In this document: piece after piece, positions 2,205 to 57,948 of the stretch
How positions within the stretch are numbered: position 1 is the stretch's first letter
Layout of the letters: each line of letters starts with the position of its first letter
Assembly (NCBI GenBank): GCA_022798335.1
Contig: JAAWMH010000015.1
Span: forward strand, 7,872 to 71,871
DNA length: 64,000 nucleotides
Source: Clostridia bacterium
GTDB lineage: Bacteria > Bacillota > Clostridia > TANB77 > CAG-508
Direction of reading: 5' to 3'
The notes under the pieces: generated by a model
What the model was told of the DNA's origin: nothing
What the model saw: only the letters and a program-made list of their open reading frames with translations
Database searches by the model: none
Position numbers and translations under genes: made by a program

Positions 2205-3493
2205 TTACTTTCCTATTAACTCCAAATTTTCTATTCCGATTATTTTTGTATTATATACTGTGTTTTCTAAGTTTTTATCTGTTTCTATTTTTACTACCAT
2301 ATAGTTTGTTGTATGCCCTTTTAAATATTTTCCTTCTCTTTCTTCTACTAGTACCTCTACTTGTTTTCCTATATATTGCTTTTGATATTCTTCTTCGTTT
2401 TTATCTGATAATTCTATTAGTTTATTACTTCTTTCTTCTTTTTTGTTTCCATCTATTTGATTTGGCATAGTGCTAGCTACAGTTCCTTTTCTTGGTGAAT
2501 ATTTAAACACGTGCATTTTATAAAACTTTATCTTTTCTAAAAAGCTATAGGTTTGTTTAAATTCTTCCTGCGTTTCTCCTGGAAACCCTACAATAATATC
2601 TGTTGTCAAATGTACTTTTGGAAATGCTTTTCGTAATAGTTTAGTTACCTCTTCAAATTGCTCTATTGTATATTTTCTATTCATCCTTTTTAAGGTTTCA
2701 TTACATCCACTTTGTAATGATAGATGAAATTGATTACATATCTTGTTTAATTTTTTTAGTCTTTCTACAAATTCTTCTGTAATTAAAGTGGGCTCTAATG
2801 AGCCTAATCGTATTCTTTGTATTCCTTCTATTTTTTGAAGTTCTTCTAATAGATCTATTAGTTGATATTCTTCTTCAAAATCTTTTCCATAAGAAGCAAG
2901 ATGAATGCCTGTTAATACTATTTCTTTTATTCCATTTTTGCTTATTTTTTCTACTTCTTGTAAAACACTTTGTGGTTTTCTGCTTCTAATGCGTCCTCTT
3001 GCATATGGAATAATGCAATACGAACAAAATTGATTACAGCCATCTTGCACTTTAATAACTGCTCTTGTTTTTTCAGTATATGTAACTTGTCCAAAGTCTA
3101 AAAATTCTTTTTGTTCTTCTATTTTTGATACATGCATGATTTGCTCTTTTTGATACTCTTCTATATATTTTATAATTTCATTTTTTTCATTAATACCTAA
3201 TATTAAATCAATTTCTTCTATTTTTTGAAGTTCTTCTTTGGCTACTTGTGCATAGCATCCGCACTACTACTAATATAGATTTTGAATTTTTTTCTTTTAC
3301 TTTTCTTAAACTTTGTCTTGATTTTTTGTCTGCTATATTAGTAACTGTACAAGTGTTTATTACATAAATATCTGCTTTTTCTTCAAACTCTACTATTTGG
3401 TATCCTGCCCCTATAAATTTTTGCATCATAGCATTTGTTTCATATTGATTTACTTTGCACCCGCAATGTGCAAAAAGCTACTGTTTTTTTCAT
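2205..3493 (-). CDS. mtaB: tRNA (N6-threonylcarbamoyladenosine) methylthiotransferase MtaB (radical SAM MiaB-like), reading frame broken twice by single-C insertions
   Basis: ORFs 2205-3137 (radical SAM core CNQFCSYCIIPYARG, TRAM) and 3208-3429 (MTTase N-domain) plus N-term MKKTVAFCTL at 3493; removing C at about 3460 and about 3261 restores one frame (TLGCKVNQYE...; VVVGCYAQVAKEE...). Confidence 0.8.
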
Positions 3494-3541
3494 TTATTTT
3501 CCTTCCATTTGCTACTTTTTATTTATATTATATTAAAATAT

Positions 3542-3569
3542 ACAGCCTTTTAATAAAAGGCTGTTTTTT
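3542..3569. terminator. bidirectional hairpin terminator (ACAGCCTTTT-AAT-AAAAGGCTGT + T6)
   Basis: perfect 10-bp stem, 3-nt loop, T-run; downstream of groESL-small ORF unit on minus strand. Confidence 0.6.
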
Positions 3570-3782
3570 GATTAGCTACATATCAAAGTAATACCATTTA
3601 ATTGAATTTAATCCCAATGTTACTCCTAATATCACTCCCTATTTAATAACAAATAGGTTACCCATTTCTTTAGCCCCTTTCAAAAGTTGTTGAGCATAAC
3701 ATATCATATTTTTATATACTTTTCAATACCATTTTCAATTTTAAAGTGGCTCCTCTATTTTAAGGAACCACTTTATTTTTTA

Positions 3783-3998
3783 TTATGGAATATAAATTTT
3801 GCGAATATGCGTAGCAAATTCTATGACTGTCAAAGAACCTATAATCAACCATAAATAACATAAAATTCTAACTACTTTGTGTTGATTAAAAAGCTTCTCC
3901 GCTTTTTGGCATACAGATGGTAACATCGTTAATACCAAAACTACTATACCTAAAAGCCCTAATGCCACCCGTCCTGCTATTACCATAATGCTCCACAT
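3783..3998 (-). CDS. small hypothetical membrane protein (2 TM) downstream of groEL
   Basis: 71-aa ORF with two hydrophobic segments; no recognisable family. Confidence 0.35.
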   Translation of the reverse strand: MWSIMVIAGRVALGLLGIVVLVLTMLPSVCQKAEKLFNQHKVVRILCYLWLIIGSLTVIEFATHIRKIYIP

Positions 3999-4073
3999 AA
4001 TTTACTCTCCCTTCAAAGAATTGTATATATATACTATCATATTTTCTTTGCCCTTTCAAGTGTTTACATAATT

Positions 4074-5747
<1,674 letters not shown>

Positions 5748-6154: not shown

Positions 6155-6193
6155 GACTGCTAATACTTTATACCCATTTTATATTCTTGTCAA
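6155..6193 (-). promoter_or_regulatory. putative sigmaA promoter of groESL (TTGACA -35, TATAAAGT -10 on minus strand) abutting CIRCE
   Basis: rc of 6188-6193 = TTGACA; about 15-17 nt spacer; -10 next to CIRCE as in other Firmicutes. Confidence 0.5.
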
Positions 6194-6247
6194 GTATCTG
6201 CTTTTATTTTTCACATATTTTTCACAATCTTATAGGTAAAAAGGATT

Positions 6248-7862
<1,615 letters not shown>

Positions 7863-7967
7863 TTAATAAAAAAATAGATTTAAAACAAAACTTCCCTTAG
7901 GGTGTTTTTTTTAAATCTATCATATTGTTATCATACATGATTACTTTCTAATTGTAAATATATTTCT

Positions 7968-9110
7968 TTAAATATTTGTTTTTATTTCATTTGTACTGAT
8001 AAAAACTTTTTTTATTTTTCCTATATTGCTTTTTATTATTTTAACTAGCTGCATGGCTATTATGGAAAATACTATATCTATTATTAATACAACAAGGCAG
8101 TATTGATAATAATTTAAGCTATACCTTTGGAAAATATATTTTATTAATGTAATGATCCATATTTGATTTAAATACATTGGTAAACTTAATTTTTCTAAAA
8201 AATAAACAAATTTGTTATTGCAAAATTTTAATAGTAATGTTTTTTCACTAAATGCAATACTAATACAAATAGATAGTATTAATATCATAATAAAATCATA
8301 TTTGTTATGAGCATTCTTTATATTTACTACAATAAATATGCTTGTAAATCCTATTATTTCAATACATGTTAATATTGTTTTAGCAATCTTAGTAAAATTT
8401 ATACTTTTTAGTTTTTGTGTTACTTCATATAATATTACACCTAATGATATTTCAAAAAATCCTCTTAAAAAACATTTATATACTAAACCTGTCCATACAT
8501 CTATTGAAACTATATTTCCGTATCTATGTGCTATATAGCCACCTATAAAAATTACAATTGCTGGTGCTATTATATATACAAAATTTTTTCTAAATTTTAA
8601 AATTATTGGATATAATATATTCATAGCAATTATCATTACTGATATATACCATGTAATATCCATAACAGAATCATACTTTATTCCACTTTGTTTTAAAAAT
8701 AATATATCCCATATAGAATTTATAACTTGATGAGTTTGAAAATGCTTTACAAAATACATAACTAGAACTGATATTACATAAGTAATTAGCATCCATGGGA
8801 AAAATTTTTTTATTTTCTTTATGATATATTGATAAGTTTCCTTTCCTAGTTCTTCATTTTCTACTTTTTTGTAATTTAAAGCTTTTTTTCCTAAAAAATA
8901 TCCTGAAACTAAAAAGAAAAACTCAACCCCTATACTTCCTGCTGCAAAAACAAATTTTGCGTCTTTGGTAATTAATTGTCCTATATGTAAAAAGATTATC
9001 ATAATGCAAAATGCAAATTTCCAAAAGCCAATTATTCCATTATGCTCTTCTTTTCTTTTTTGTAGCATATTACATGTTACAGCATAATTATTGTTGTTTT
9101 TATCTTTCAT
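7968..9110 (-). CDS. acyltransferase family 3 (OatA-like) integral membrane protein
   Basis: 380 aa, about 10 TM, GFWKFAFCIMIIFLH acyl_transf_3-type N-terminus. Confidence 0.7.
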   Translation of the reverse strand: MKDKNNNNYAVTCNMLQKRKEEHNGIIGFWKFAFCIMIIFLHIGQLITKDAKFVFAAGSIGVEFFFLVSGYFLGKKALNYKKVENEELGKETYQYIIKKIKKFFPWMLITYVISVLVMYFVKHFQTHQVINSIWDILFLKQSGIKYDSVMDITWYISVMIIAMNILYPIILKFRKNFVYIIAPAIVIFIGGYIAHRYGNIVSIDVWTGLVYKCFLRGFFEISLGVILYEVTQKLKSINFTKIAKTILTCIEIIGFTSIFIVVNIKNAHNKYDFIMILILSICISIAFSEKTLLLKFCNNKFVYFLEKLSLPMYLNQIWIITLIKYIFQRYSLNYYQYCLVVLIIDIVFSIIAMQLVKIIKSNIGKIKKVFISTNEIKTNI

Positions 9111-19815: not shown

Positions 19816-20505
19816 GTTATATCTTCCTTTCTTTTTTCATTTAAAATTTCATAACTTTCTACTGCCTGAACACACCTTCTATATTCTCTTCTGTTTTCTT
19901 CACATGTAATTAAAGTAATACAATTTTGCTTTGTCTGCTTTAAATAATTCCAGTTTGTTTCTAATATTACTTTATTGGTTTGTACTTGGTAAACTCTCTT
20001 TCCGTTTTTCAGTAGTATAAATAATTTCGTCTCCTATTTTTAAATTTTTTATGTTTTGAAAATAATTACACTGATATCCTCTATTATGTGCTGCAAGTCC
20101 TACATTTCCTTGCCATTTACTTGTTTCTTCAAAATGACCTACTGACTTTAATAAAATGTTAGGACTAGTTCCTTCCTCAATATGGATATCTAAATTAATT
20201 TTTGGTATTTGAATTCTCCAAGTGTTTTCTTTATACTCTTTTACAATTTCTCTTTGTATTTTATTGTTTGTTTTTGTAACTATTACATTATGATTTTCCT
20301 CTACTTTTTTTGTTTGGATATCATTAGAAATCTCTTTAGAATAAATTTGATTAGAATAAAATTTATTGGATAGTAATTCTACAAAGTCATACATAAGATG
20401 AAGAAAAACAATAAGAAACATTGCTATGATAAAGACTAAAAAGCTAACATTTCTTTTTGTGTATGTAATCACATATTTTGCACCTACTCTCTTTTTGGAT
20501 TTCAA
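19812..20505 (-). CDS. sortase family transpeptidase, frame broken by a single-C insertion before the catalytic TLITC segment
   Basis: N-terminal TM anchor, conserved His (NILLKSVGHFEETS); removing C at about 20002 (aaaCggaaag) restores ...EKGKRVYQVQTNKVILETNWNYLKQTKQNCITLITCEE... Confidence 0.75.
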
Positions 20506-20613
20506 TAGAAATAAAATTTTTTGAATAAATTTTTTGGAAAAAATTGCAATTTTTAACTTTCTTTATCTTACACCCTATTTGGCGTTTTGTAAAGTTTTTT
20601 TCATTGACAATTT

Positions 20614-20646
20614 TCGACTTATTTTACAAGAGGGTGGCAATATGCC
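20614..20646. terminator. strong GC-rich hairpin terminator (13-bp stem CAAGAGGGTGGCA / TGCCACCCTCTTG)
   Basis: perfect palindrome directly after stop of the 20674-21012 gene. Confidence 0.7.
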
Positions 20647-20673
20647 ACCCTCTTGTAAGGAGTAAATGCAACT

Positions 20674-21012
20674 TTAATTGTTGTTTAACAGCTCCTTGAA
20701 CTCCACTTCGCTGACTTCCTTGAACTCTTTCGTAAAAGTTGGAACAAACTTATCCTTGACAGGATGCCCAAACCCCTTAAAGAAGCAGACCTCCTTCACT
20801 ACGCGGATAATTTTGTTGTTTAGGTCTACGACTTCATCTGCTCCAGCATAGTCCATCAGTTTTGCCAACCGCTGAATATCTGCCAGATTTGTCAATATGA
20901 AGCCCCAATAGCAGGTGCCGCATTGAGCCTCAAAGGTTAAGCTAACGGACAGGTTGTCGTTGCTATCAACCTTTGCAGTTGCATCTTTAATTCTTGCGTT
21001 TATGAGTTCCAT
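20674..21012 (-). CDS. hypothetical 112-aa protein encoded by a compositionally foreign (about 45% GC) gene
   Basis: start MELINARIKD preceded by perfect AAGGAGG RBS; GC far above the about 28% background; own terminator; no family recognised. Confidence 0.5.
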   Translation of the reverse strand: MELINARIKDATAKVDSNDNLSVSLTFEAQCGTCYWGFILTNLADIQRLAKLMDYAGADEVVDLNNKIIRVVKEVCFFKGFGHPVKDKFVPTFTKEFKEVSEVEFKELLNNN

Positions 21013-21146
21013 AAAGTAGTCCTCCTTAATTTTAATAATTACACAAGAATAGGTCACTTTTATTATAGCATAAATTAACATAAAAAACAAGCTGATTACT
21101 TTTTTGAATTTTTTGCAAATGATTTTCTAAGACTCATTTTTTATAT

Positions 21147-22667
21147 TTATTTCCTGCTCTTTTCTTTATTGATATCAAAATAAAATTCTACACCATCTTC
21201 TTTATTTACCACTCCATAGGCATTTTGGTAATTTGTTTGAATTGCTTTTACTAAAGCTAAGCCTATTCCACTTCCTCCATCTCCACGGTTTCGTGAACTA
21301 TCAACTTTATAAAATCTGCCCCAAATTCTATCTAGATTTTCTTCTTCTATATTTTTACCAGTATTAAATATAAATACTCTTACCTTTGCTTCTTTTTGTT
21401 CTATTGTAATTTGAATTTGTTTTTTGCCGTCTACTACTTCTGCATGTTTTATTGCATTTGTAAAATAGTTTGTTACTATTTGATCTATATAAAAATCATC
21501 TGCATATACATAAATTGGTTCTTTCTTTTCAAATATTACTTCTATTTCATTTTCTTCTAGCATAACATTGCATTTTCTAATCACTTCTTTGATTAGTTCT
21601 ACTAAGTCAAATTTTTCATCATTAAACTCTCTTTTTCCATATTCTAGTTTCATAAGTTCTAACAATTGTTTTACCAATTTGTCCATTTTATTTGACTCAT
21701 CTAAAATCACTTCGGCATAAAACTTTTTAGACTCTTCGTCGTTATTTACATTTTCTACTAGCCCTTCTGCATATCCTTGTATTAAAGCAATTGGTGTTTT
21801 TAACTCATGAGATACATCTGAAATAAATTGCTTTCTCATTTCATCTATTTTAGATTTTTCTTCAATGTCTTTTTCTAGTTCTTTGTTATTTTCTCTTAAT
21901 TGGTTTATCGTAGTTTCTAATTTGTCTGACATGGTATTAATATTTTTTCCTAGCTTATTTATTTCATCGTCTGAGTCTGTAATACGATATTTTTTACTAA
22001 AGTCTAGTTTTGCCATTTGATTGGTAATTTCATTTAGTTGCAAAATTGGCTCTGTAAATTTACGCGAAATAAGAGAAGCTGCAAAAGATGAAACAATAAT
22101 TGTAAGTAAGCCAATTAAAACTAATACTTCGTTAGAAATTCTAACACTTTCTTCTATTGGTGCAATTGGTATTCTAATATATAAACTGTAACCATTTACT
22201 AAATTTCCTGTTAGTAATATATAGTTTAAACTATTTGCACTATCTGCTATTTTCCTAATTTCCATATTTTCATCTGTATAAATAATATTAGCTCTTTCTT
22301 TACTAGATTGTATTTTTGTCATTTCTGTAATTTTATTTAAGTTATCTAAAAAGTCTTTATCTGTAGAAAATAGTATCAAATTTGTATCTGTTTTAATTAA
22401 AATATCAAAATTATTGCGAAAAGCAATTTTCTTCAATTCATTTTCTAAATTATATTCTAAATTAGGTTTTGCATAATACTGATTTATTTTTTGATATACT
22501 TCTTTAATTGTTTTAGTTTTACTATACATATAAAAATTTTCTAATACTAAACTATTGATTGTTATTAAACATAGCACTAAAAACATAATAACTGCACAAA
22601 GTGTAATAAATAATCTAACTCTTACTGATTTTAGCTTTTCTTTTATTTTTTCCATAACGCTCCTCAT
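21147..22667 (-). CDS. sensor histidine kinase (2 TM, HAMP, HisKA SHELKTPIALIQGY, HATPase_c)
   Basis: 506 aa with classic H-box, N, G1/G2 boxes. Confidence 0.85.
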   Translation of the reverse strand: MRSVMEKIKEKLKSVRVRLFITLCAVIMFLVLCLITINSLVLENFYMYSKTKTIKEVYQKINQYYAKPNLEYNLENELKKIAFRNNFDILIKTDTNLILFSTDKDFLDNLNKITEMTKIQSSKERANIIYTDENMEIRKIADSANSLNYILLTGNLVNGYSLYIRIPIAPIEESVRISNEVLVLIGLLTIIVSSFAASLISRKFTEPILQLNEITNQMAKLDFSKKYRITDSDDEINKLGKNINTMSDKLETTINQLRENNKELEKDIEEKSKIDEMRKQFISDVSHELKTPIALIQGYAEGLVENVNNDEESKKFYAEVILDESNKMDKLVKQLLELMKLEYGKREFNDEKFDLVELIKEVIRKCNVMLEENEIEVIFEKKEPIYVYADDFYIDQIVTNYFTNAIKHAEVVDGKKQIQITIEQKEAKVRVFIFNTGKNIEEENLDRIWGRFYKVDSSRNRGDGGSGIGLALVKAIQTNYQNAYGVVNKEDGVEFYFDINKEKSRK

Positions 22668-23463: not shown

Positions 23464-23934
23464 TTACAAAGGAAACCAAATTTGAAATTCAATTTTTTCT
23501 AACTCTTCACAATTAGAATATTTTGGGTTAAATTTTCGCTTTTCTTTCCGAACCATTCCACATTCTTTTATGGGAGGATTGGTAATGTCTATCAAAAGCT
23601 CTGGTGCACATTCCCATTTAAAAACTCTTCTAATTGCTGTGTGGTCATTTTCCCAATGATAGCTAATTGTTCTTCCTTCAAGGTCCACAGTAATAAACAT
23701 TTTGATAACACTTTGCGAGGTATCTACTTCTTCAAGTGCCTTATTTGTAATCAAAGTTATTACTTCTGACCAAAACATTGTAAGCTCACATTGTTTCTTT
23801 TCTTTTTCACATTTTAACTGTTCCTCTTGGCTACTAATCCATTTATTGTTCAAACTCTTTAACTTATTCCGAGTTTCATGAATTCTTAGCAGATTATCTC
23901 CTACACTAAGAACTAGCTGTCTGTTTTCTGCCAT
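23464..23934 (-). CDS. hypothetical 156-aa protein (moderately elevated GC, monocistronic with own terminator)
   Basis: ORF MAENRQLVLSVGDNLLRIHE...; no recognisable domain. Confidence 0.5.
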   Translation of the reverse strand: MAENRQLVLSVGDNLLRIHETRNKLKSLNNKWISSQEEQLKCEKEKKQCELTMFWSEVITLITNKALEEVDTSQSVIKMFITVDLEGRTISYHWENDHTAIRRVFKWECAPELLIDITNPPIKECGMVRKEKRKFNPKYSNCEELEKIEFQIWFPL

Positions 23935-56849: not shown

Positions 56850-56855
56850 CTGCAA

Positions 56856-56896
56856 AAAGCCCAAGTAGATTTTTCCTCTATTTGGGCTTTTATTTT
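56856..56896 (+). terminator. rho-independent terminator of glmS (AAAGCCCAA...TTGGGCTTT + T-run)
   Basis: 9-bp stem, TTTTATTTT tail. Confidence 0.65.
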
Positions 56897-56940
56897 AGAG
56901 CTTTATTTTGCTCTTACTGCTCTTGAGCATTTATTGGATT

Positions 56941-57585
56941 TTACTTAATCATGTTGTTATCCAGCAGAATGTAGTTTGCTCTATGAATATAGAGCGCCAG
57001 TCCATCAATATTGAGCTTTGTCGTTTTAGGCAGGTCATTCGGAATCTCCCAGTATACCTGCTTGCCACCATAAACAGCAACAGGCACGCCTAGCTGCGAG
57101 CACACGATAACCACCTTGGGTGTTCCCAATATATTTTTGATTTCATTGATATTCCGATCAAAAATATTGATGGTGCCACCACTTGTGGCAATGTCATCAG
57201 GCAGTTCAAAGTCTTCTAACTTCTTCAGCCCATCTTCTGCAAAAATGATGGTATTTCCCGTTTGCGCTACCTGGTTACCATCAACCGTCATAGTAATGAC
57301 GCTGCTAAGTTCATAATTTTTGCTTTCGACTCCATCGGAATCCACAGATTTTGTGTTTACATAGTTTGCCTCTAAGCCCACCTTGGTTCCTTCAATGTTC
57401 AAAATATTGTTGCCAAAATTATCGTAGAACTCAATGTTAAAATGGTTACCGATAAGTTCTCCCTTAACGTTTTTTATCGTGTTAGAAAGGAGTCCGCAGC
57501 CGCTGAATGTGTAGGCAATAAGTACTAATGCAGTAAAAATGAACAATGCTGGTACTGCTACTTTCCGAACTTTTCCTTTTTTCAT
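56941..57585 (-). CDS. lipoprotein of unknown function encoded by a compositionally foreign (about 42% GC) gene
   Basis: signal peptide with lipobox (LIAYTFSGC); GC about 14 points above neighbours. Confidence 0.6.
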   Translation of the reverse strand: MKKGKVRKVAVPALFIFTALVLIAYTFSGCGLLSNTIKNVKGELIGNHFNIEFYDNFGNNILNIEGTKVGLEANYVNTKSVDSDGVESKNYELSSVITMTVDGNQVAQTGNTIIFAEDGLKKLEDFELPDDIATSGGTINIFDRNINEIKNILGTPKVVIVCSQLGVPVAVYGGKQVYWEIPNDLPKTTKLNIDGLALYIHRANYILLDNNMIK

Positions 57586-57687
57586 GATGATACCTCCAAT
57601 TTTGTTTTCTAGTTAGAATTTCATTTTGCTCAAGGATTTTATCTTAGAGCTTCTCCATTATAACATGTTTCTTACTTTTAGTCAAAT

Positions 57688-57948
57688 TTACATAAATATT
57701 TTTAATGCAATTAATAAAATTGCTCCTGGTATTCCTAATATTCCTACTAAAATAGCAGTTCCTACATTTAGTCCTATATGAAACTGAAAAGCTGCTCCTA
57801 TTAAATTGATTATAAAAATAAGTATTCCACCTAGTATTGAATTACCTACTAATTTTAAAATTGCTTTTAAAGGAACTGAAAATATCTTGCCGATTACCAT
57901 AAAAACAACAATACAACCAATTATCACAAAAACATTAGAAAAGTCCAA
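57688..57948 (-). CDS. bofA: pro-sigmaK processing inhibitor BofA (copy 2, canonical yaaL-bofA context); probable TTG start
   Basis: 86 aa, 2 TM, GILGIPG motif; about 45% identical to copy 1. Confidence 0.75.
   Translation of the reverse strand: MDFSNVFVIIGCIVVFMVIGKIFSVPLKAILKLVGNSILGGILIFIINLIGAAFQFHIGLNVGTAILVGILGIPGAILLIALKIFM

Follow-up and report, generated by a model that had tools for sequence, protein, structure and literature searches.

OB-fold (oligonucleotide/oligosaccharide-binding) proteins encoded next to relaxase genes serve as accessory factors of the relaxosome or of a helicase: HelP raises the processivity of the PcrA helicase, and nicking is stimulated by the relaxosome auxiliaries OrfL and OrfM (PMC12614216). 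In PrgE, encoded by plasmid pCF10 of Enterococcus faecalis, the OB fold is supplemented by a C-terminal helix and by two helices in loop L34 (PMC12614216); the protein binds both single-stranded (ss) and double-stranded DNA like beads on a string (bioRxiv 10.1101/2024.03.13.584862). Here we describe a 517-bp single-gene cassette from a Clostridia bacterium, located on a 64,000-nucleotide stretch of contig JAAWMH010000015.1 (assembly GCA_022798335.1; the whole stretch is called the window below). The cassette is foreign and was acquired horizontally, and the best structural match of the small protein that it encodes is PrgE.

The clostridial mobilisable transposons Tn4451 and Tn4453 have genes for TnpX, TnpV, TnpZ/Mob and TnpW, and in Tn4451 the catP gene is placed directly after tnpV. 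The relatives of the cassette gene on mobile elements appear to belong with transposons of this kind. We give about an even chance to the reading in which the window has acquired a self-contained cassette encoding a PrgE-like OB protein of Tn4451-type elements, an accessory factor for ssDNA or the relaxosome.

The insertion between the kinase and sortase genes

On four contigs of a sister species (L165-L168; contigs and loci other than the window are cited by number), the gene for a sensor kinase, 87% identical to that of the window, is followed by 179 nt and then by a sortase gene, with no gene between them; the gene order is MS-channel, response regulator, kinase, sortase, TED adhesin. In the window, the 517-bp cassette stands in place of these 179 bp. 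The limits of the foreign segment are set as in Table 1 because blastn matches flank it (window 21400-21168 equals L165 6256-6488, and window 20629-20443 equals L165 6683-6890) and because the kinase aligns to its stop codon, the kinases of the window and the sister species being alignable by eye up to that point. The right junction, 20629/20630, falls inside the base of the 3' arm of the hairpin that follows the cassette gene, and there TTGTAAAA is common to the window and the sister species. Neither a target-site duplication nor terminal inverted repeats were seen at the window junctions. The 179 bp of the sister species hold the long hairpin terminator of the kinase gene, which the cassette has replaced in the window. 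This hairpin (L165:6504-6682) is unusually long, its arms, AAAAGATCTCATAATA and TATTATGAGGTCTTTTT, being separated by about 110 nt.

An empty site in related genomes had been proposed as a check by the original prediction, which called attention to positions 20600-21012 as a compositionally foreign gene, and the sister species provides such a site. Orthologues of the kinase were found at 100%, 95%, 88-87%, 82% and lower identity. All contigs of the same species that extend to the site have the cassette (L001, L002, L019, L020, L021, L022 and L024), so it is fixed in the species of the window. Presence of the same gene in all close relatives, named by the original prediction as a sign against foreign origin, thus holds within the species, on seven contigs, but not for the sister species.

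The composition of the segment agrees with its foreign origin. Measured over 200-nt steps, the GC content is 0.405-0.445 at positions 20600-20999, up from 0.22-0.28 before and falling to 0.23 after. The cassette gene has GC of 0.435, compared with 0.293±0.035 in 62 open reading frames (ORFs) of the window (z 4.1), and GC at third codon positions (GC3) of 0.536, the maximum in the window, compared with 0.172±0.065 (z 5.6). Its codon-adaptation index, calculated with the window's own genes as the reference set, is 0.32, compared with 0.69±0.065 for the other ORFs (z -5.6), and CTG and CTC make up half of its leucine codons and 2% of leucine codons in the rest of the window. The compositional jump, the consensus start and the suspected anomaly in codon usage are thus all borne out. 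The ORF is intact, and its translation is the one quoted originally. Horizontal acquisition is supported by the empty site in the sister species, by the atypical codons, and by the presence of the same gene on Tn4451-like elements (see below).

Table 1. Features of the cassette and its surroundings; coordinates refer to the window unless a locus is named
Feature	Coordinates	Strand	Basis
Foreign segment, 517 bp, promoter-to-hairpin cassette	20630..21146	minus	blastn against sister contig L165
Coding sequence, 112 aa + stop, small PrgE-like OB-fold protein (predicted) of an unnamed family	20674..21012	minus	ORF/translation, family, model
Shine-Dalgarno sequence AAGGAGG	21021..21027	minus	8-nt spacer to ATG at 21012-21010; invariant in 11 aligned homologues
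5' leader	21013..21061	minus	homologue alignment
Extended -10 element TGCTATAAT	21062..21070	minus	17 nt downstream of the -35-like hexamer
-35-like hexamer TTGTTT	21085..21090	minus	read from sequence; position conserved in homologue alignment
Conserved 3' box AGTTGCATTTACTCCTTA	20656..20673	minus	conservation across copies
16-bp GC-rich hairpin, 3-nt loop, no U-tract	20624..20658	minus	folding -28.3 kcal/mol, z -7.2
HAMP/HisKA sensor kinase, native context	21147..22667	minus	orthologues, sister synteny
Sortase gene, 177 aa, native context, possibly truncated	19972..20505	minus	sister synteny, Pfam
tRNA-Leu(tag) genes by solo cassettes	L008:9579-9661, L011:9223-9306, L014:9608-9691		
tRNA-Tyr gene by solo cassette	L158:26-111		

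The cassette protein and its family

Neither the protein alone nor the profile of its family had a meaningful match in Pfam, NCBIfam, PHROG, PADLOC or the sequences of PDB; tblastn against annotated plasmids and phages produced no match, and a protein-pattern scan of IMG/VR found no relative. A word-indexed search returned 2 relatives. An exhaustive HMMER scan of 1.84 billion representatives, however, found 77 cluster representatives at E<1e-3, of which 44 are at E<1e-10, all of about 105-130 aa and matched end to end. A look-up of these clusters yielded neither names nor taxa. The protein had been described as an orphan that matches nothing; this stands for the libraries of named profiles and has to be given up in the strict sense, as the protein belongs to a genuine, unnamed family, defined here by sequence comparison. 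An alignment of 66 sequences has conserved I8, F38, L52-M53, Y55, K67, R70 and the motif G-F-G-H-P-x-x-D-x-F. Pairwise ratios of non-synonymous to synonymous substitution rates (dN/dS) are 0.1-0.6 within the family, indicating purifying selection on the gene.

The AlphaFold2 model built on this alignment has a mean pLDDT (predicted local distance difference test) of 97.4 and a pTM (predicted template modelling score) of 0.89. The predicted fold is a five-stranded OB barrel with two helices after β3 and a C-terminal helix, in the order β1-β2-β3, helix, helix, β4-β5, C-terminal helix (strands E2-15, E21-29 and E32-39, helices H43-56 and H61-64, strands E68-74 and E77-82, a short strand, and helix 102-111). 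The model includes no signal peptide and no membrane segment. In a Foldseek search of PDB the top match was PrgE of pCF10 (8s4s/8s4t; E 2.6e-3, probability 1.0, template modelling score 0.54-0.55), followed by Rim1, hSSB1, the OB domain of PolC, RPA and the DII domains of RuvBL. Matches in BFVD were to uncharacterised phage proteins and to several DUF669 proteins, with E 1e-4 to 1e-2. OB and SSB domains make up most of the Foldseek matches. The OB barrel, the two β3-β4 helices and the C-terminal helix are common to PrgE and the model, and PrgE is likewise a small protein of a Gram-positive transferable element. It is longer than the cassette protein (144 aa vs 112 aa), shares no sequence homology with it, and is encoded in the operon of a type IV secretion system (T4SS), unlike the monocistronic cassette gene with its own promoter. 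Nucleic acids may be bound on the β2-β3/L45 face, given the conserved F38, K67 and R70, yet the net charge of the protein is acidic.

The original prediction suggested a gene of the immunity or anti-defence type. Small size, foreign composition and monocistronic layout would suit an orphan immunity or antitoxin-type protein directed against a toxin or bacteriocin encoded elsewhere. We find this very improbable: no toxin or bacteriocin partner adjoins the gene in any of about 25 loci, the OB barrel is not a known immunity fold, the protein appears to have neither signal peptide nor membrane segment, and Pfam, NCBIfam and PADLOC were without a match.

Copies on mobilisable transposons and in chromosomes

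Protein-pattern scans gave 7 loci in a set of one genome per GTDB species and 11 loci in JGI/ENA metagenomes. The first genome scan, based on the 66-sequence alignment, lacked a block conserved enough, and the rerun used 12 sequences. Loci with a stated source come from uncultured gut Clostridia or from 'Clostridium sp. CAG:245', and all loci have 25-35% GC.

Several of these copies lie on elements. In L149 the order of genes is Mob_Pre (425 aa, opposite strand), a weak match to TnpW, radical-SAM/SPASM, KilA-N, TnpV, a second Mob_Pre (463 aa; 6180-7571), a gene for a 101-aa protein (7583-7888), and the OB gene (7975-8313); profile scores are 132 bits for Mob_Pre and 117 bits for TnpV. The radical-SAM/SPASM gene and the KilA-N domain gene of this locus are at 3457-4662 and 4709-5689. 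In L147 the series is large serine recombinase, Mob, 101-aa gene, OB gene, and the order Mob, 101-aa gene, OB gene is common to L009, L148 and L150. TnpV is directly upstream of the OB gene in L004, and an ISL3 transposase is upstream of it in L015. Homology among element copies stops about 150-230 bp past the OB gene (L149 8472-8548), and therefore no further gene seems to lie between the OB gene and the element end.

By their gene content, the carriers are best described as Tn4451/Tn4453-like mobilisable transposons, as L147 and L149 have the large serine recombinase, TnpV, Mob_Pre and the weak TnpW match. In L004 the OB gene, placed after tnpV, occupies the accessory-gene slot that catP has in Tn4451. 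The home of the family, as judged from these gene orders, is the distal end of Tn4451-family transposons that circulate in AT-rich gut Clostridia. T4SS genes were found in none of the loci examined, and the carriers are mobilisable, not conjugative. The window, on the other hand, has no recombinase, Mob or transposon ends, and retains the cargo cassette only, between native genes.

In every locus the OB gene is richer in GC than its surroundings (0.33-0.46 vs 0.25-0.31; GC3 0.26-0.55). On L147 and L149 it has 0.44-0.46, and those elements' genes for the relaxase, the recombinase and the 101-aa protein have 0.24-0.28, so that the GC anomaly belongs to the gene and not to its vehicle. Synonymous sites are saturated between the window copy and copies of the L149 type (dS 1.7-2.6), and both are still GC-rich. 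Either the gene has repeatedly re-entered AT-rich genomes from an unsampled, GC-richer reservoir, or its composition is selected.

Solo copies, found in the window, L008, L010, L011, L012, L013, L014, L158 and others, stand between unrelated AT-rich genes of housekeeping type. The blastn match of L149 to solo copies is limited to L149 7839-8383 for L008 and L011 (85%), to 7915-8371 for L010, and to 7898-8335 for the window (69%; window 21090-20652); the matched span reaches from the promoter to the hairpin. In L008 and L011 about 50 nt from the 3' end of the 101-aa gene of the element have survived, which argues that solo copies come from element copies. A palindrome seen upstream of the cassette in L008, L009 and L011 proved to be the 3' end of this same 101-aa ORF. 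The left ends of the solo copies are ragged, spread over 76 bp, and this argues against precise site-specific excision of a cassette. At four loci the solo copy is 200-340 nt downstream of a tRNA gene of the same orientation (Table 1), with different protein-coding neighbours, and L018 and L164 end in an apparent partial tRNA. Adjacency to tRNA genes is what arrival by an integrase, followed by decay, would leave. Judging from these sequences, solo copies may have arisen either by insertion of an element and deletion of the rest of it, or by capture of the cassette through illegitimate recombination.

The reverse direction, in which the OB gene is a domesticated host gene (for instance one that excludes or interferes with incoming elements or phages, or that encodes an auxiliary SSB, a protein that binds single-stranded DNA) and the transposon copies are secondary captures, seems decidedly unlikely to us. 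It would account for a gene that is intact and fixed in all seven same-species contigs that reach the site, is under purifying selection, and is found as a solo copy in at least six other genomes, in three species beside tRNA-Leu(tag), with proteins 35-59% identical to that of the window. But L008 and L011, with their remnant of the 101-aa gene and with solo copies that are 85% identical in DNA to the element copy, suggest movement from the element to the chromosome; the codons are still very unlike those of the host, and PADLOC has no match.

What would the protein do on an element? In the reading that we prefer, the cassette would drive constitutive, probably strong synthesis of a cytoplasmic OB protein from its own promoter. 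The protein would bind ssDNA, a relaxase or helicase partner, or both and, together with Mob_Pre, would protect, coat or help to process the strand undergoing mobilisation or rolling-circle replication; instead of coating the strand, it may recruit a helicase to it. The analogy is with PrgE, HelP and OrfL/OrfM of Gram-positive conjugative elements. A solo copy might keep supplying this function in trans, or might be kept for a benefit to the host.

Small OB-fold proteins encoded beside a relaxase gene are known in HelP, OrfL, OrfM and Orf22-Orf23 (ICEBs1, ICESt3, Tn916), and L149 and L147 repeat this arrangement; the window copy does not, and the cassette gene also occurs alone. OrfM is without capping helices (PMC12614216), unlike the model of the cassette protein. 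The profile search of PDB, which holds 2K5D, gave no match to it.

Several observations weigh against a role in transfer. The likeness to PrgE is at the level of the fold, with a root-mean-square deviation of about 7 Å; hhalign of the family alignment against PrgE gives a probability of 0.75%, and sequence and profile searches of PDB matched no chain, including PrgE, SAG0934/2K5D and SSBs. PrgE itself is dispensable for conjugation. The relaxase of the carriers is PF01076 Mob_Pre (MOBV), whereas HelP, OrfL and OrfM work with MOBT relaxases, and the OB accessory proteins that have been studied experimentally are associated with MOBT or MOBP; again unlike PrgE, members of the family reside on mobilisable transposons of the MOBV/serine-recombinase kind or alone in chromosomes. 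With a median pI of 5.5, these proteins are mildly acidic, which does not suggest a generic DNA binder. Solo copies persist intact with no relaxase nearby, and a purely transfer-related role leaves this unexplained, as it does the GC-rich coding sequence within AT-rich elements.

The main alternative is an anti-defence function, possible in our view though rather doubtful, in which a small, strongly expressed cargo protein neutralises an immune system of the host, for example by sequestering a signal, by mimicking or masking ssDNA, or by blocking an effector that senses SSB or DNA; a solo copy would then be kept, like a moron, because it also shifts the balance of the host's own defence. The layout is typical of such genes, i.e., small, acidic, fast-evolving, single and equipped with a promoter, and the placement at the end of a mobile element and dN/dS of up to 0.6 agree with it. 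The window copy and its counterpart in another strain of the species (L001:186-524) differ by three substitutions, all of them non-synonymous (S22F, T33A, I39R) and none synonymous; all fall in the β2-β3 hairpin (codons 22-39), the most variable stretch of the family alignment, and the aligned non-coding flanks are identical. Region-specific dN/dS exceeds 1 in one pair only. The L010 cassette abuts a GC-elevated island that encodes a 276-aa protein with a Tad4 (Thoeris inhibitor) domain (PF25186, 35 bits), a neighbour seen at a single locus type. The protein bears no likeness to a known anti-defence family in PADLOC, Pfam (Tad and Acr included) or PHROGs, no relative was found in phages, where such genes abound, and solo copies are fixed in chromosomes with no obvious benefit there. 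As in prophage morons, the cassette has its own promoter and hairpin, a composition unlike that of both neighbours and a place between unrelated genes; unlike them, it resides in the chromosome and in mobilisable transposons, and no phage relatives were found. Given the fold and the position after the relaxase gene, the accessory role for ssDNA or the relaxosome is at least as strongly indicated as anti-defence.

The island of L010 (10655-14348, GC 0.36-0.43; also in L153) directly follows the OB cassette, and includes in addition a split HD_3-domain gene, a lipoprotein-like protein and small unknown proteins.

Flanking signals, neighbouring genes and significance

The cassette carries its own transcription signals, and in the window copy promoter and hairpin are assigned from sequence and conservation, not from a scan. 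The -35-like hexamer matches 3 of the 6 consensus bases (TTGATT or TTGACT in relatives), and its weakness appears to be compensated by the extended -10 element, the equivalent of which (TGGTAAAAT or TGATATAAT) is kept throughout the family, the distant subfamily included. A promoter scanner made no call at TTGTTT-17 nt-TGCTATAAT (21090-21062), because the -35 has only three consensus bases. Just after the -10, leaders of the relatives have a palindrome, GTTAC-N6-GTAAC, that is degenerate in the window (GTGAC...GTAAT) and is a possible operator or 5' hairpin. A stabilising 5' hairpin was considered and rejected, as the folding energy of the leader is not above that of shuffled sequences and the motif is degenerate in the window.

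Downstream of the gene, the GC-rich hairpin is stronger than first described, with a stem of 16 bp and not 13; its U-tract is absent, and for this reason a terminator scanner did not call it. Hairpins of the relatives, unlike that of the window copy, carry T-rich tails, and the stem sequence varies among homologues with complementarity kept. The full transcript folds with z -5.7 because of this terminal hairpin. A structured RNA or ssDNA hidden in the GC-rich coding sequence was rejected, with z for the coding sequence alone ranging from +0.8 to -4.0 (median about -0.8), and Rfam gave sub-threshold noise only.

The missing U-tract, the degenerate palindrome and the weak -35 might be taken as signs of decay, with the gene being a non-functional remnant of a mobile element. 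We regard this as highly improbable, as every strain has an intact ORF, dN/dS values stay below 1, and, although synonymous sites are saturated, the Shine-Dalgarno sequence, the start codon, the extended -10 and the 3' box have been kept perfectly.

The flanks of the gene are in fact more conserved than its synonymous sites. Identity to the window copy is 45-54% at third codon positions, 67-80% over the 85 nt that precede the ATG, and 75-96% over the first 24 nt that follow the stop codon; sequence comparison thus indicates conservation of the non-coding flanks beyond neutrality. The elements that can be recognised are the promoter, the leader palindrome, ATTAAATTTAAGGAGG, and the 3' box AGTTnCATTTACTCCTTA directly before the hairpin. 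The box is kept in L015 and L160, the proteins of which are 28-29% identical to that of the window. The only place where it was found in 365 kb of fetched loci is directly after the OB gene, which excludes an integron-like sharing of flanks among different ORFs. A scan of IMG/VR DNA with the 3' box was uninformative, giving at least 120 matches that arise by chance because the reverse complement of the box reads as a generic ribosome-binding site (RBS) and ATG.

In icaR of Staphylococcus aureus, the 3' untranslated region (UTR) pairs with the 5'UTR via an anti-Shine-Dalgarno motif. The cassette likewise has a conserved CUCCUUA (CTCCTTA, 20662-20656) before its terminal hairpin, complementary to its own Shine-Dalgarno sequence UAAGGAG, and AGUUnCAU of the box complements either codons 10-12 (AUGyAACU) or the region of the start codon; AGTTGCAT is the putative partner of codons 10-12. 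In 11 sequences, 95% of cells pair, as opposed to 37-48% with slid partners, and two pairs change on both sides (C-G, U-G, U-A and A-U, G-C, G-U); in one clade a U-U mismatch stands at the centre. Covariation is not significant, with 42-80 of 500 shuffles reaching the observed value, and the energies of the duplex are marginally better than those of shuffled boxes (z -0.6 to -2.8). An icaR-like interaction of the 3'UTR with the RBS in the cassette mRNA is thus a hypothesis, for which conservation and complementarity speak.

The distant subfamily has a homologous promoter, TTGACTTTTATGTAAATGTrTGATATAAT. Its members L018, L161, L162 and L164, at 24-34% identity, use TTTTTTGGAGGAA as the Shine-Dalgarno sequence, have a different, longer leader with a hairpin of its own, and end in a plain terminator without the 3' box.

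These features raise the thought of a new kind of mobile single-gene unit, in which selection would act on the cis elements (a family-wide promoter, the palindrome of the leader and a gene-specific 3' 'anti-RBS' box that may pair with the Shine-Dalgarno sequence and start region) no less than on the protein, and would keep the coding sequence GC-rich in hosts and elements of 25-30% GC; the unit would encode a hitherto unrecognised OB establishment or anti-defence factor and be spread between transposons and tRNA-proximal sites by imprecise capture. We consider this unlikely.

Some other genes of the window and of the sister species deserve mention. Of the 125 positions of the Pfam sortase profile, the sortase that follows the cassette matches 1-72, and it may be truncated; sortases of the sister species have 222-257 aa, and there are two TED adhesin genes there and one in the window. 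A second GC-rich monocistronic gene, at 56941..57585 of the minus strand (flanks about 56853-57690), has GC of 0.405 and GC3 of 0.44, which rank second in the window. The gene, for a DUF5052 protein (PF16475, 204 bits; phrog_2316), has its own TTGACT-17-TGTTATAAT promoter and a terminator made of a hairpin and T-run, and looks like another foreign single-gene cassette. A 156-aa ORF at 23464..23934 of the minus strand, with a mildly raised GC of 0.33, has no Pfam or PHROG match, and in the sister species an SPL-family gene takes its place between the MS-channel gene and the response regulator.

The OB fold class is already familiar; new are the protein family, which has no entry in Pfam, NCBIfam or PHROG, and the class of element on which an OB accessory type is found. 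The family, now named and anchored, is so far restricted to AT-rich gut Clostridia, with about 77 clusters. It combines two unusual properties, flanks that are conserved past the saturation of synonymous sites, and GC3 of 0.37-0.55 in genomes with GC3 of about 0.17, even within AT-rich carriers. As a cargo cassette for which the empty site is known, it is a clean natural example in which to study the detachment of single genes from mobile elements. If the preferred reading is true, OB-fold accessory proteins extend from conjugative plasmids and MOBT integrative and conjugative elements to small MOBV/serine-recombinase transposons, and if the protein is an establishment or anti-defence factor, it would have a bearing on gene flow in the human gut microbiome.

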